DNA of 64,000 bases from Squalus acanthias (Eukaryota). The position numbers and the translations under genes were made by a program. The stretch spans positions 5,580,001-5,644,000 of the forward strand of contig CM059432.1 in NCBI GenBank assembly GCA_030390025.1, written 5' to 3'. The notes beneath the pieces are model-generated. The model was not told the DNA's origin. It saw only the letters and a program-made list of their open reading frames with translations, and made no database searches. How positions within the stretch are numbered: position 1 is the first letter of the stretch; every line of letters starts with the position of its first letter. Below, piece by piece: positions 11,501 through 24,828 of this stretch.

Positions 11501-12128
11501 CCAGAGTTCTAGCGAATCGAATAACTAGGGAGGTAGATAGGACTTTAAACTAAATAAGGTGGGGGGAGGGTCCCGGTGGAGAGAACTCTAGAATGCTAAA
11601 GAGAAAAGACAAGGAAGCAGTGCAGGAAAGTGATTGGGGTAAGGATAACCAGATTGTGTCAGGAGGGGACAGAGCGTATAATCAAAAGAGTGCACTAACA
11701 AATAGGGTCAGGGTAAGAAAAAATGGTAAGACAAATAGGGCCATAGTATAAAAAAATGTTAAGATGTCTAAAAATGTTAAAAAGACAAATCTAAAGGCAC
11801 TGTATCTGAATGCACGAAGCATTCGTAATAAGGTAGATGAATTAACAGCACAAATAGATGTAAACGGATACTGTCGTAAGAATGAGCCTTATGCGTGGTG
11901 AACTTAAAGTAAGCTTTAATCAACTAAAAAGGTGCTACATACAAAAGAGGTCTTACTCTATGCCTCTCCAGGATCCAACTGATCAGTCCAGTATTTATCC
12001 TGGACTAATCACAGGAAGTGATGCAATAAAGTTCGAGTCACAGGAAGCTGTATTGTGTTACCACATTCTCCCCCCCCAAAAGATTAGGAGGCCGGGATGA
12101 AGTTCGAGTCACAGGAAGCTGTATTGTG

Positions 12129-13636
12129 TTACCACATTCTCCCTCCATTTCGTAGCCGCTGGACGAGGGAGAGCCGCACCCGTTTGGGTTCTCGTAGCGG
12201 TAGAGGGCCCCTAGCCCGTTTACCCGCCGCGGGCCGTGGACCAGAGTCCGAGTGATCCAGCCCGCTCTGTGAGGGGTCAGGACGATCCTGACTGTGTACT
12301 GGTGCCCGAACGGGTGTCGGGCAGGGCTGTGGCAGATCCGTTTCCGAGCGTACGGTACAGGGTGGATCGTGGCTGCGCGTGCGAGCCCCGACGGGCTCAT
12401 AGTCAGTCTGCCCCAGGTCGGCACGCTGGAGTGAGGTACCAGCCGGCGTCAGATCCAGATCGTGATGAGAGGCACCTGGCGAGCCCAGAGATGTGCCTGG
12501 TACAATATCATCCCCTGGTGTCCCTCTATGTTTCGGCGGGCAGGGAGCCAGATCCCGCAATGACACGGTAGATTCCCGACCGTCAGGATACCGAATATAG
12601 GCGTAGGTAGGGTTGACGTCAGTGAGCTCAACCTCATCTACCAGGGGGTCATTCTTAGACGCCCGGACATATCTTCGGAGTAGCACTGGTCCCGGTGCAG
12701 TCAGCCACGACGGGAGAGATATCCCATAGGATGAGCGACGCTGAAATCGGAAGAACCGTTCATGAGGCGTCGTATTTGTGGCGGTCGAAAGTGTAATGCG
12801 TCTGGAAGTACTGCTTCCCATTGCTGGTTGGGTAGGCCCCGAGATCTCAAAGCCAGATGTACCGCATTCCAGATGATAGCGTTAAAACGCTCGACTTGCC
12901 CATTCCCAACCGGATGATAAGGCGTCGTTTTGCTGGCAGCAATACCCCGTTCCGAGAGATAGGCCTTGAGTTCTCCTGACATAAAAGAAGGGCCCCGATC
13001 CGAATGAACATAGGATGCCGTACCACAGAAAGCAAATACCTGCTCAAGGCAGCTGATAACCGTGGTCGTCAGCATATTGGGGCAGGGAAAGGCAAACGGA
13101 AAACGGGAATACTCATCGACCATGGTCAATAGATAAGTGTTGCGAGTTGAAGAGGGCAACGGCCCCTTAAAATCGATGCTAAGCCGTTGCATTGGCTGGG
13201 TCGCATGTATGAGTATACCACCCGAGGGGCGGAAAAACCGAGGTTTCAATTCCGCACAGACTCTGCAGTCCGAGCACATCTTCTTTACATCCCCGGTAGA
13301 GAATGGGAGATTTCGGGACCGCACGAAGTGTAGCATGCGAGTAACGCCCGGATGACACAACCCATCATGGATGTCTACGAGCGTAGAGGGTGCCATGGCG
13401 GAGCAGAATGCTCGTGTGAGGGTATCCGGAGCCACATTCTCCTTGCCAGGTCGATAGTGGATGGTGTAACCAAAAGAGGCCAATTCCAGCCGCCAAAGCT
13501 GGATTTTATTATTTTTAATTTTGGTCCGTTTTCGATTATCGAGCATGAAGGCGACCGATCGCTGGTCCGTGATTAAGGTAAAGTGCTGGCGAGCTAGGAG
13601 ATGACTCCACTTCCGTACTGCCTCTATGATGGCTGT
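12129..13636 (-). pseudogene. Gypsy RNase H C-terminal half plus integrase, frameshifted near 12790
   Basis: EATAIIEAVRKW..TDQRS; HHCC (HDGLCHPG..CSDCRVC); DDE core (SIDFKGP, HSDRG, NGQVERFN). The C-terminus continues in another frame (STATNTTPHERFF). Confidence 0.88.
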
Positions 13637-14904
13637 AGCTTCTTATGCTGCTTTTGAAAATCCAGCCCTAAGATAAGATCACTACATAAGTCCTTGAGCA
13701 CCGAAAGCCGGGTGGAGGGATACCTGCGACCATTAAGTGTTATTTCAACCATACAAAAGCCAGAAATTCTGGTATTAAGTGATGACTGAGCCATCGCAAC
13801 TGCCTGGTCCGATGGGAAAACATGTAGCTTTAACTCTGCAACAATCTGTTCCCTAATGAAACTATCAGTGCTACCTGAGTCAATTAAGGCATCTAAAGTA
13901 TGTCCATTAATTGATGCTTTTGTAGCTGCATGGAATAGGTTCTGAGGACAAGCAGCTGTAATTGGTGTCGTTGCACAAAGAGTGGCTGAAACTCTAGGTG
14001 TGTTTCTTCGAGAGGAAGCACGATAGATTTTAGCCGGAACATCTTGATAGGCCCTTACCGGGGCAGTTCGGTAGGACTTAGCTTGATAAGCCCTCGTAGA
14101 GGCTCTTGATAGGCAAACCTTTGCAAAATGACCCTTTTTGTTGCAATGACTGCAAAACGCATTGCGAGCAGGGCAGAATTTCCGAGGGTGGAACTCATCA
14201 CCACAAAAGAAGCATTTCTTAGATTGCCAAGAGGCTGCCACAGTGGGGTCATCATCCTCTTCATCAGTGAAGTCATCAGATTGATCGTCAGGGATAAAGA
14301 CCTCCCTAATAGAGTTCACCTGTGGCCTCTTAAATTGCCTGACTGTAGTTAAGGCAGTAGACCGAGGTCTGGGCACTGTATAAAGGTCTGCATTTCTTTT
14401 TGCCAGATCTAGAGAGCAAGCCATGTCATAAGCTTTCTGAAGCTCAAGTATCTTACTTTCCAGTAGACGCTGGCGTATAAATGGGGAGGCAAGCCCGCAG
14501 ATGAAAGCATCACGGATCATTTCTTCACGGTACAGCTCAGCTGAGGCCGCCCGAAAGTTACAGTCCATACTAAGTCTGCGAAGATCTTGGAGGAATTTAT
14601 CAATGGATTCCTCCGGCCCTTGTTGGGCTGTTGCTAGTAGATGTCTGGCATAGACCTCATTCGGTGTCTTAGTATATAGTCTCTTAAGCGTCCGAATTGC
14701 CTCCTTGTAACTGTCCCATTTCTCCACATACTGAAATACATTCGGGGTGACACAGTTGATGAGTATCCGCAACTTTGAGTTATCATCAGCCTTACAATAT
14801 TCAAGAAAATTGTCAAACGTGCAATACCAGTGTTTCCACACCTTACCGGCTGCTGGGGTGTTTGGGTCCAAGTCAAGACGCGATGGTTTAAGGATGTTTT
14901 CCAT
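13624..14904 (-). CDS. Gypsy gag-protease ORF (zinc knuckles, aspartic protease), truncated by internal deletion
   Basis: CFFCGDEFHPRKFC and CSHCNKKGHFAKVC knuckles; LIDSGS protease motif; ILGLDF. Confidence 0.85.
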   Translation of the reverse strand: MENILKPSRLDLDPNTPAAGKVWKHWYCTFDNFLEYCKADDNSKLRILINCVTPNVFQYVEKWDSYKEAIRTLKRLYTKTPNEVYARHLLATAQQGPEESIDKFLQDLRRLSMDCNFRAASAELYREEMIRDAFICGLASPFIRQRLLESKILELQKAYDMACSLDLAKRNADLYTVPRPRSTALTTVRQFKRPQVNSIREVFIPDDQSDDFTDEEDDDPTVAASWQSKKCFFCGDEFHPRKFCPARNAFCSHCNKKGHFAKVCLSRASTRAYQAKSYRTAPVRAYQDVPAKIYRASSRRNTPRVSATLCATTPITAACPQNLFHAATKASINGHTLDALIDSGSTDSFIREQIVAELKLHVFPSDQAVAMAQSSLNTRISGFCMVEITLNGRRYPSTRLSVLKDLCSDLILGLDFQKQHKKLQPS

Positions 14905-17631
14905 GATGGGTGATTCCCTGGATCCTTAGTTCCGAGTTCGTCCAAAAAGTTTGAGTGCGAAGTTTTCCAAAGTTGATTAAATTGTCGTAAGAATGAGCCT
15001 TACGCGTGGTGAACTTAAAGTAAGCTTTAATCAACTAAAAAGGTGCTACATACAAAAGAGGTCTTACTCTATGCCTCTCCAGGATCCAACTGATCAGTCC
15101 AGTATTTATCCTGGACTAATCACAGGAAGTGATGCAATAAAGTTCGAGTCACAGGAAGCTGTATTGTGTTACCACAGATACGATATAATTGCAATTACAG
15201 AGACATGGCTGCAGGGTGACCAAGACTGGGAGCTGAATATCCAAGGATATTCGATATTTAGGAAGGACAGGCAAAAAGGAAAAGGAGGTGGGGTGCCGTT
15301 ATTAGTAAAGGATGAAATCAGAGCAATAGTGAGAAAGGATATTGGCTCAGAAAATCAAGATGTAGAATCAGTCTGGGTGGAGCTAAGAAGAACCAAGGGG
15401 CAGAAAACATTGGTGGGAGTTGTATATAGGCCTCCAAACAGTAGTGGTAATATAGGGGATGGCATCAAACAGGAAATTAGAGATGCATGTAACAAGGGTA
15501 CTACAGTAATCATGGGTGACTTTAATCTACATATAGACTGGCCAAACCAAATTAGCAGTAATACTGTGGAGGATGAATTCCTGGAGTGTGTACGAGATGG
15601 TTTTTTAGACCAGTACGTTGAGGAGCCAACTAGGGAACAGGCTATCCTAGATTGGGTATTGTGCAATGAGAAGGGGTTAATTAATAATCTTGTTGTGCGG
15701 GGTCCTTCAGGGAAGAGTGACCATAACATGATAGAATTCTTCATTAAGATGGAAAGTGAAGTAGTCCAATCTGAAACTAGGGTCCTAAATCTAAACAAAG
15801 GAAACTACGAAGGTATGAGGAGGGAGTTGGCTATGATAGATTGGGGAGCTTCATTAAAAGGCATGACAGTGGATAGGCAATGGCTAACATTTAAGGAACG
15901 AATGCATGAATTGCAACAGTTATACATTCCTTTCTGGCACAAAAACACAAAAGGAAAAGCGGCCCAACCATGGCTAACAAAAGAAATTAAGGATAGTATT
16001 AGATCCAAAGAGGAGTCATATAAAGTTGCCAGAAAAAGTAGCAAGCCTGAGGATTGGGAGCAGTTTAGAGTTCAGCAAAAAAAGACCAAGAGATTGATTA
16101 AGAGGGGAAAAATAGAGTATGAAAGTAAACTTGCAAGGAACATAAAAGCAGACTGTAAAAGCTTCTACAAGTATGTAAAAAGAAAAAGATTAGTGAAGAC
16201 AAATGTAGGTCCCTTACAGTCAGAAACGAGAGAATTTAAAATGGGGAACAATGAGATGGCTGAGCAATTAAACAAATACTTTGGTTCTGTCTTCACGGTA
16301 GAGGACATAAATAACTTCCCAGAAATGCTAAGGAACCAAGGGTCTAGTGAGAAGGAGGAATTAAAGGAAATTAGTATTAGTAAAAAAATAGTGCTGGAGA
16401 AATTCATGGGACTGAAAGCTGATAAATCCCCAGGGCCTGATAATCTGCATCCCAGAGTACTAAAAGAGGTAGCCATGGAAATAGTGGATGCATTGGTTGT
16501 CATCTTCCAAAATTCTATAGATTATGGAACAGTTCCTGCAGATTGGAGGGTGGCAAATGTAACCCCACTATTTAAAAAAGGAGGGAGAGAGAAAACAGGG
16601 AACTACAGACCAGTTAGCCTAACATCAGTAGTAGGGAAAATGCTAGAGTCTATTATAAAGGATGTGATAACAGGACACTTAGAAAATATCAACGGGATTA
16701 GACAAAGTCAACATGGATTTATGAAAGGGAAATCGTGTTTGACAAACCTACTGGAGTTTTTTGAGGATGTAACTGGTAGACTAGATAAGGGAGAACCAGT
16801 GGATGTGGTGTATTTGGATTTTCAGAAGGCCTTTGATAAAGTCCCACATAAGAGGTTAGTGTTCAAAATTAAAGCACATGGGATTGGGGGTAATATACTG
16901 GCATGGATTGAAAATTGGTTAACAGACAGGAAACAGAGAGTAGGAATAAATGGGTCTTTTTCGGGGTGGTAGGCGGTGACTAGTGGGGTACTGCAGGGAT
17001 CAGTGCTTGCGCCCCAGCTATTCACAATATATATCAATGATTTGGATGAGGGAACCAAATGTAATATTTCCAAGTTTGCTGACGACACAAAACTAGGTGG
17101 GATTGTGAGTTGTGAGGAGGATGCAAAGAGGCTTCAAGGCGATTTAGACAAGTTGAGTGAGTGGGAAAATACATGGCAGATGCAGTATAACGTGGATAAA
17201 TGTGAAGTTATACACTTCGGTAGGAAAAACAGAAAGGTAGAGTATTATTTAAATGGTGATAGATTGGGAAATGTTGATGTACAAAGGGACCTGGGTGTCC
17301 TTGTACACCAGTCACTGAAAGCAAACATGCAGGTGCAGCAAGCAGTTAGGAGGGAGGGAGAGAGGGAAAGGGGTAGGGAGGTTGGAGGGGGATAGTGCAA
17401 GGCAAAAGGGTGTGGGAATGGGACAAGTATAGAAACAAAAGATGGGTCTAGAGAAGCTGGAAATAGCAACAGCAGAAACATGACCAATAACATTACTCGG
17501 ACTTGGTGCGAGTTAGGGTACGGGCAGCAGAGTTTTGGATGCGTTAACTTTTACGGAGGGTGGAAGATGGGAGGCCAGCCAGGAGAGCATTGGAATAGTG
17601 CAGTCTGGAGGTAACAAATGCATAGGACACT

Positions 17632-23216: not shown

Positions 23217-23248
23217 TGCATGTTTTACAAAGTAACAGTCCGTCACCA

Positions 23249-24210
23249 CTGCCCCTCCGACAGTGCAGCACTCCCTCAGTACTGCCCCACCTGACAGTGT
23301 AGCACTCCCTCAGTACTGCCCCACCTGACAGTGTAGCACTCCCTTAGTACTGCCCCTCCAACAGTGCAGCGCTCCCTCAGTACTGCCCCTCCAACAGTGC
23401 AGCGCTCCCTCAGTACTGCACCTCCAACAGTGTAGTGCTCACTCAGAACTGCCCCTCCAACAGTACAGTGTTCCCTCAGTACTGCCGCTCCAACAATGCT
23501 GCATTCCCTCAGTACTGCCCCTCCGACAGTGCAGCATTCCCTCAGTACTGCCCCTCCGACAGTGCAGCACTCCCTCAGTACTGCCCCTCCGACAGTGCGG
23601 CGCTCCCTCAGTACTGCCCCTCCGACAGTGCAGCGCTCCCTCAGTACTGCCCCTCTGACAGTGCAGCGCTCCCTCAGTACTGCCCCTCCGACAGTGCAGC
23701 GCTCCCTCAGTACTGCCCCTCCGACAGTGCAGCGCTCCCTCAGTACTGCCCCTCTGACAGTGCAGCGCTCCCTCAGTACTGCCCCTCCGACAGTGTAGCA
23801 CTCCCTCAGTACTGCCCCTCCGACAGTGCAGCGCTCCCTCAGTACTGCCCCTCCGACAGTGCAGCGCTCCCTCAGTACTGCCCCTCTGACAGTGCAGCGC
23901 TCCCTCAGTACTGCCCCTCCGACAGTGCAGCACTCCCTCAGTACTGCCCCTCCGACAGTGCGGCGCTCCCTCAGTACTGCCCCTCCAACAGTGCAGCGCT
24001 CCCTCAGTACTGCCCCTCTGACAGTGCAGCGCTCCCTCAGTACTGCCCCTCCGACAGTGCAGCACTCCCTCAGTACTGCCCCTCCGTCAGTGCAGCACTC
24101 CCTCAGTACTCCCCCTCCGACAGTGCAGCGCTCCCTCAGTACTGCCCCTCCGACAGTGCGGCGCTCCCTCAGTACTCCCCCTCCGACAGTGCAGTGTTCC
24201 CTCAGTACTG
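23249..24210. repeat. 33-bp minisatellite (about 29 copies) derived from a DeuSINE segment
   Basis: Unit CAGTACTGCCCCTCCGACAGTGCAGCGCTCCCT is the reverse complement of the SINE segment seen at 24930-24960. Confidence 0.95.
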
Positions 24211-24828
24211 CATGGTCAGTCTCGATTATGTGCTTGTCTTGTGAATAACAAACAATTAAGAAGCACACAGTACTTACATATTATTTACACAGAATTACAC
24301 AGAATTTTAAGGCACTGAAACTGGCCATTCGGCCCGACAGGTCTATGCCGGTGTTTATGCTCCACTCGAGCCTCCTCCCACCCTCCTTCATCTCACTCTA
24401 TCAACATATCCTTCTATTCCTTTCTCCCTCATGTGTTTATCCAGCTTCCTCTTAAATGCATCTGTGCTATTCGCCTCAACCACTCCCTGTGGTAGCGAGT
24501 TCCACATTCTCACCACTTTCTGGGTAAAGAAGTTACTCCTGAATTCCCTATTGGATTTATTAGTGACTATTTCATTAAAATCACGGGGAGGTGGAGGGCG
24601 CGATTTCGCGAAGCTAACGGAGGAGCGGCGCTAATCGTCCAGCGATTTGTGGCGATTCACCATTCACGGGGTATCTCCGCCTCGCCACAAGTTGCTGGCC
24701 GATTTCAGCGCTAATAACGCCGTGCGTCATTCAGATGCTGTTATTGTTTCAGCAAAATTTGACTCCTTATGTTTATGGCCCATAGTTTTGGACACCCTCC
24801 ACAAGTAAAAACATCTTCTCTATCATCC

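Follow-up and report, generated by a model that had tools for sequence, protein, structure and literature searches.

An LTR-leader duplex conserved at the priming position of a Ty3/Gypsy clade, and the case for self-primed reverse transcription

What primes reverse transcription in an LTR retrotransposon whose leader offers no site for a tRNA? The question is raised by an element lying in a 64,000-nucleotide stretch of the Squalus acanthias genome (assembly GCA_030390025.1, contig CM059432.1, positions 5,580,001 to 5,644,000), referred to here as the window. A sequence-only reading of this DNA had noted that the bases following the 5′ LTR carry no TGG-type primer-binding site (PBS) and are complementary to a segment of the element's own LTR, and had proposed tRNA-independent priming from that segment, possibly coupled to suppression of the 5′ poly(A) signal. 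The features on which the argument turns are these:

15176-11872, minus strand: Ty3/Gypsy element with two LTRs, TG...CA ends, target-site duplication (TSD) and polypurine tract (PPT)
14983..15176, minus strand: 5′ LTR, 194 bp, TG...CA, 99.5% pairwise identity to the 3′ LTR
11872..12065, minus strand: 3′ LTR, 194 bp, holding a second copy of the putative primer segment
15177..15181, minus strand: TSD GTATC, with its partner copy at 11871-11867
12066..12077, minus strand: PPT
13624..14904, minus strand: gag (two CCHC knuckles) and protease, in a frame that stops shortly past an internal deletion
13629..13644, minus strand: junction of the internal deletion, with about 1.1 kb gone by comparison with another genomic copy
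12129..13642, minus strand: integrase and what remains of RNase H, in two reading frames; chromodomain absent
12097..12146, minus strand: extra purine tract and the LTR's first 40 bp, a duplicate upstream of the true PPT
14982..14982, minus strand: single spacer base A between LTR end and duplex
14971..14981, minus strand: 11-mer TTTAATCAACT at the PBS position, 3′ arm of duplex P1
15026..15036, minus strand: putative self-primer segment AGTTGATTAAA, 5′ arm of duplex P1
15013..15025, minus strand: hairpin P2 (GCTTA/TAAGT), beginning directly past the putative end of the primer
14986..15004, minus strand: P3, a U5-end hairpin (U5-IR-like) from structure prediction only

The element is a young Ty3/Gypsy retrotransposon inserted into CR1-like LINE sequence; its best PDB match is Ty3 Gag-Pol. 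Through the deletion of about 1.1 kb, the window copy has lost RT and the greater part of RNase H. The domain order PR-RT-RH-IN was established by Pfam searches on ten proteins, from a full-length genomic copy and relatives, and full-length copies carry the RNase H domain. No chromodomain was detected in any of the ten full-length proteins (Pfam, E up to 0.1), nor among the precomputed domains of the 120 homologues listed. The RT active site reads YxDN or FxDN in 76 of the 109 proteins with a detectable motif (121 scanned), those of the young, abundant S. acanthias family (YLDN) among them; a literature search for such motifs brought up only three papers, with a Pao-like element and a nematode endogenous virus named in their titles. 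On the opposite strand, the antisense of the 5′ LTR shares an uninterrupted reading frame with ORF2 of the flanking CR1-like LINE, from the endonuclease onward, giving 663 stop-free codons (14981-16972, plus strand) in what is probably a fortuitous frame. The window also contains minisatellite arrays, one from about 3000 (32-bp unit) and another at about 23220-24345 (33-bp unit).

The window copy belongs to a young and abundant family. The exact 25-nt junction between LTR and leader occurs at 721 places in the genome, and the same 11-mer is found in all 30 of the closest copies. Twelve copies were fetched whole: their TSDs match in every case, their LTRs are 98-100% identical to those of the window element, and six have a single frame of about 1,300 codons. 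That so many near-identical copies share this leader argues that it functions in a transposing family and is not a decayed PBS. All twelve also have the duplicate of purine tract and 40 bp of LTR, some 30 bp 5′ of the true PPT; it is triplicated in one of them (L039), and the gag-pol stop codon falls within it. The clade has another young family in S. acanthias, with a 215-bp LTR and 633 exact copies of its junction. It has the 11-mer in common with the window family and forms a duplex of 13 bp; a clear TATAAATA box lies 103 nt 5′ of the predicted cut.

In the window, the complementarity is exactly as first described. The minus strand reads A-TTTAATCAACT directly after the 5′ LTR, with no TGG at +1 to +6, and the 11-mer (14981-14971) is the exact reverse complement of AGTTGATTAAA (15036-15026). 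This segment begins in an initiator-like TTAGTT context and has at its end the hexamer ATTAAA (15031-15026), a candidate poly(A) signal. An exact complement of an 11-mer would be expected anywhere in the LTR with a probability of about 1e-4, or 6e-4 if five registers are allowed, and pairing ends at 11 bp in all 721 matched copies. The 82-nt region folds into the 11-bp P1 enclosing two hairpins, at -16.0 kcal/mol (z -2.8; 3 of 200 shuffled sequences did as well), compared with -4.8 kcal/mol (z +1.45) for the 3′ LTR and its flank. The earlier idea that the hairpin can form only at the 5′ LTR thus stands for the local structure, but the copy of the segment in the 3′ LTR could still pair with the leader over a long range. 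Fold energy by itself is weak evidence, and the weight of the case rests on relatives. Indeed, the 11-mer is AT-rich and the fold of a 141-nt window is unremarkable (z -0.3), as would be expected if the match were a coincidence of AT-rich sequence. We give that reading practically no credence: it is refuted by the low probability of the match in the window taken together with an identical register, and compensatory changes, in 25 clusters of related elements.

These relatives came from a profile scan that retained 80 out of 564 loci from metagenomes, together with 25 from genome bins. Of the resulting 105, 46 include the gag start and at least 80 nt upstream; adding the two S. acanthias families gives 48 loci, which fall into 34 clusters under an 80% DNA rule. 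The duplex itself was thus examined in the S. acanthias genome and in metagenome and genome-bin contigs, the animal relatives (sea anemone, nematodes, insects, shrimp and fluke among those named) being known as proteins. A scan of viral contigs turned up no relatives of the element. Some loci are animal Gypsy retrotransposons sitting inside prokaryotic genome bins, most likely through contamination with host DNA.

At least 10 of the 11 positions pair, in the register beginning one base past the terminal CA, in 37 of the 48 loci and 25 of the 34 clusters. A search without this anchor, over the 170 nt preceding gag, returned P1 as the longest inverted repeat in most loci, at 10-19 bp as against 5-10 bp in shuffled sequence, and the mean pair probability of P1 exceeds 0.8 in 23 of the 25 families. 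The nine clusters that did not pass include three with a partial duplex (L053, L080, L100), two cut by contig ends (L044, L049), one distant element (L145) and three whose 5′ LTR is not recognizable (L062, L099, L116). Duplexes of 14 bp can be made out by eye in L051 and L126 and were left out of the counts. Where a locus has two LTRs, the CA used for the register agrees with the LTR end as defined by TSD and 3′ LTR. The single base separating LTR end and duplex is A in 22, G in 2 and T in 1 of the 25 families. In a quick-method tree of 50 rows, all carriers of the duplex group in one long-stemmed clade (SH-aLRT 100), apart from 12 distant rows. Some leaders show local oddities: one (L069:94-253) has undergone tandem duplication of the unit comprising LTR end and PBS, and the LTRs of L069 and L084 are only about 80-85 bp long.

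The two sides of the duplex change together. The 25 representatives carry 22 distinct 11-mers, and 272 of 275 cognate positions form Watson-Crick pairs, a score somewhat inflated by choosing each family's register for maximal pairing; the highest value in 100,000 permutations was 218, and non-cognate combinations pair at 7.4 of 11 positions on average. With MAFFT (two rows of the alignment being out of place) and with counts that ignore kinship, changes on both sides were seen in 14 of 16 pairs, amounting to 84 cells against a shuffle mean of 25 (0 of 500 shuffles as high). Sliding the register on the same alignment lowered pairing from 89% to 29-49%. Cognate pairing stays above the non-cognate baseline as far as pair 16 (0.72 against about 0.3) and falls to it from pair 17. 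At finer scale, L071 and L072 differ by a compensated pair. The covariation and the persistence of complementarity in related families that the sequence-only reading had named among its checks are therefore both in evidence. Within the S. acanthias families most variant copies lack compensation. The variants examined in the window family are all uncompensated (4 of 4 in the PBS, 5 of 5 distinct ones in the 5′ LTR), which is the expectation for changes that arose after insertion. In the second family, one of six copies with an altered 5′ segment has the exact compensating change in the PBS. This sole compensated copy (L231) is chimeric: its TSDs do not match and its LTRs diverge, which suggests recombination between two insertions.

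The same data bear on whether a host tRNA, a tRNA half or another small RNA could be the primer, with the LTR match a by-product. Half-tRNA priming has a precedent in some plant Copia lineages (PMC6317226, in extract), and retrieval of tRNA genes covered only Lys(TTT) and Cys(GCA) isotypes (15 of 30 loci scanned). Against this, TGG is absent from +1 to +6 in all 25 duplex families, and every one of the 22 different 11-mers has its match in the LTR of its own family. A scan of the S. acanthias genome for the 11-mer 8-38 nt upstream of a B-box-like motif returned three occurrences (one for the control), none of them in a tRNA gene. Rfam gave no match above threshold, and a chance lncRNA hit lay far below it. 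Covariation leaves the host-tRNA reading largely refuted, and we regard it as very improbable. A TGG PBS does occur in L129, the only distant outgroup element whose LTR pair is clear and whose PBS can be read. Two other candidates were considered for the window and rejected. The TGG at +14 of the leader does not fit an LTR end that, as defined by the 3′ LTR and the TSD, demands priming at +1 to +3; and a primer derived from a splice junction, suggested by an acceptor-like T-tract and AG, is contradicted by pairing of the PBS straight across the AG into the T-tract.

A real, clade-wide and covarying duplex could still serve some purpose other than priming, for instance to mask the poly(A) signal of the 5′ LTR and, in some families, the gag AUG, while another primer is used. 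Some retroviruses do occlude their 5′ poly(A) signal by structure. In our set, 15 of 25 families have A(A/T)TAAA at the end of the segment, the local hairpin is confined to the 5′ LTR, and in L063, L065 and L066 the duplex extends to the AUG. But ten of the 25 families lack A(A/T)TAAA at this place and keep the duplex all the same, masking requires neither a fixed register one base past the CA nor avoidance of G-U pairs, and any other primer would have to complement the same family-specific bases. Masking as the sole function therefore seems improbable to us; it is a secondary role at most, and the proposed coupling of priming to poly(A) suppression is correspondingly weakened. The overlap of hexamer and segment may simply be geometric: if R is counted from the cut, it would be 10-30 nt long whenever the hexamer has its end at that point. 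In four families (L063, L065, L066 and L080) the leader is as short as 16-19 nt, with the duplex reaching the A of the gag AUG; this arrangement hints at a switch between translation and packaging.

Two properties of P1 point to priming. The first is its position. In LTR elements the end of the LTR is fixed by the 3′ end of the primer, and the duplex always lies one base past the LTR end, where that 3′ end must be. The second is the scarcity of G-U pairs: 4 of 373 in P1 as against 16 of 85 in P2 (Fisher p 1.5e-9), P2 having been defined in a way that allowed G-U. A helix maintained for RNA structure alone should tolerate such pairs and a PBS rewritten from its primer should not, so the difference would be a trace of priming. 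P2 is itself a regular companion of the segment. A hairpin of at least 4 bp begins at the first base after it in 18 of 25 families, where 6.3 would be expected and shuffling gave 12 at most; the clade pattern is RCCW...WGGY and the context of the predicted cut, AAA|RCC, is conserved. A U5-end hairpin is predicted in some families only.

We conclude that this clade very probably primes its own reverse transcription, whatever the geometry. An 11-16-base segment of the LTR, paired at the position where RT must start, would be the primer. In the version that we favor, and that we consider reasonably likely on present sequence data, priming resembles that of Tf1: P1 would form within the packaged RNA, and the element's own RNase H is predicted to cut the 5′ RNA copy at the AAA|RCC junction of P1 and P2, or within one base of it, leaving a free 3′-OH. 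RT would then copy U5 and R back to the cut and jump to the 3′ end of the RNA. R would have the cut as its 5′ border and, 10-30 nt past the hexamer, a poly(A) site as its 3′ border, and an R beginning at the cut would explain why the hexamer usually ends there. Plus-strand synthesis would finally rewrite the PBS from the primer; because the PBS would be copied in this way in each cycle, the match would be kept strictly Watson-Crick. Of the original proposal, priming without a tRNA thus gains from covariation, fixed register, lack of TGG and G-U depletion, and the notion that the primer is internal to the transcript meets mixed evidence.

Whether the segment is the capped end of the RNA or lies inside R is in fact about evenly balanced. 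Initiator-like A, G and T at -11, -10 and -9 (in 18, 23 and 20 of 25 families, respectively) fit a start near the segment, as do three short-LTR families with just about 35-44 nt of LTR upstream of it, and the stop of pairing at 11 bp in the window family favors the segment as RNA 5′ end. Pairing out to pair 16, upstream of the initiator-like A, counts against it. Likewise, just 2 of 25 families have a TATA motif at about -30 relative to the segment in our own scan, and the two S. acanthias families have TATA-like boxes at distances of 103 and 85 nt upstream; both observations fit a start further upstream. One could envision another origin of the self-primer, namely the segment's 3′ (U3/R) copy, a separate RNA molecule or a short transcript of the LTR; the duplex would then circularize the genome or form in trans. 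The presence of the segment in both LTRs, the pairing to 16 nt past the initiator-like A and the upstream TATA-like boxes of two families would all be accommodated. Yet the local fold-back is stable, with P2 stacked on the junction, a primer from the 3′ copy could work only after loss of its poly(A) tail, and the variants seen (one copy changed in both LTRs with an unchanged PBS, and one compensated chimera) are not numerous enough to speak for this geometry or to tell a 5′-copy primer from a 3′-copy one. We consider this origin unlikely. A broader synthesis can be offered tentatively: a pan-animal, non-chromoviral Gypsy clade with RTs mostly of YxDN type might have evolved self-priming independently and unlike Tf1, from an internal or 3′-derived LTR primer ending in the hexamer, and a switch between P1 and the free hexamer might couple priming, 3′-end formation and gag translation.

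If self-priming by this clade is true, a widespread group of animal Gypsy elements, whose families can each number hundreds of young copies in a single genome, would represent a further independent escape from tRNA priming, and possibly also from silencing by 3′ tRNA fragments. It would account for annotations of the type “no PBS found”, and the origin of the self-primer would become testable in animals by mapping RNA ends. The signature CA-N-TTTA...; AGY...AAA|RCC can serve to classify members of the clade.

Self-priming is treated as a hallmark of the Tf1/sushi chromoviruses and of a few plant groups in which it is predicted; to our knowledge, proof exists to date for just one element, from fission yeast and of a different lineage. 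We found no report of it for a non-chromoviral Gypsy clade of animals in the full-text literature, Repbase reports and subscription papers being outside the scope of the search, and the available parts of PMC3587641, PMC6934838, PMC5006619 and PMC2582038 describe no such case. Nor did the motifs of the clade give a naming match in published supplements or full-text literature. As to affiliation, the clade has two CCHC knuckles, short LTRs and neither chromodomain nor env, like the Mag lineage (A, B and C clades, MolGy3/11) and the Cigr-1 clade; Cigr-1 and Saci-2 are what we take to be its candidate relatives. Compared through published descriptions (PMC2774666, PMC6238403 and PMC3601003, each in part), its markers fit either the Mag lineage or the Cigr-1 clade. 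A G-x-V motif following the integrase core, read in protein P0121 and relatives, recalls the GxV/I module of SURL (an excerpt of PMC2774666, supplement 3). Unlike this clade, the Mag elements of mosquitoes have PBSs for tRNA-Leu, -Ser or -Arg (PMC3286476, in the portion available).

The closest mechanistic parallel is provided by Tf1, whose first 11 bases pair with the PBS and are cut by RNase H (PMC7175516, in extract). As described in parts of the literature, Tf1 and Tf2 of Schizosaccharomyces pombe, Tj1 of S. japonicus, Tosmo/Tcry1 and the Tf1/sushi group share with our elements the lack of a tRNA PBS and a PBS complementary to about 11 nt of their own LTR-derived RNA, and in Tf1/sushi, as predicted here, flanking helices adjoin the duplex (excerpts of PMC7175516, PMC10085805 and PMC4600332). 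The Tf1/sushi group is marked by a three-duplex structure together with a chromodomain (PMC10085805 and PMC4600332, as far as available). For comparison with the three-duplex “pretzel” of Tf1, our clade shows P1, an enriched P2 (18 of 25 families) and, in some families only, a predicted U5-end hairpin. The differences are equally plain. No chromodomain is present (0 of 10), so the clade is not placed in Tf1/sushi; Gag has two knuckles, and LTRs and leaders are very short. The duplex measures 11-19 bp and usually ends in a poly(A)-type hexamer, and P2 is a local hairpin at the junction. Finally, the primer of Tf1 is the RNA 5′ end, whereas here the sequence clues to the position of the segment in the RNA are mixed. 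A second parallel comes from plants, where complementarity between LTR and PBS has led to the prediction of self-priming for Tcn1 (Gypsy) and for the TAR, Houba and Osr-1 elements (Copia), so that independent origins are already accepted (PMC6317226, excerpted). Unlike the plant self-primers, the elements described here are non-chromoviral Gypsy elements of animals, in other lineages and other kingdoms.
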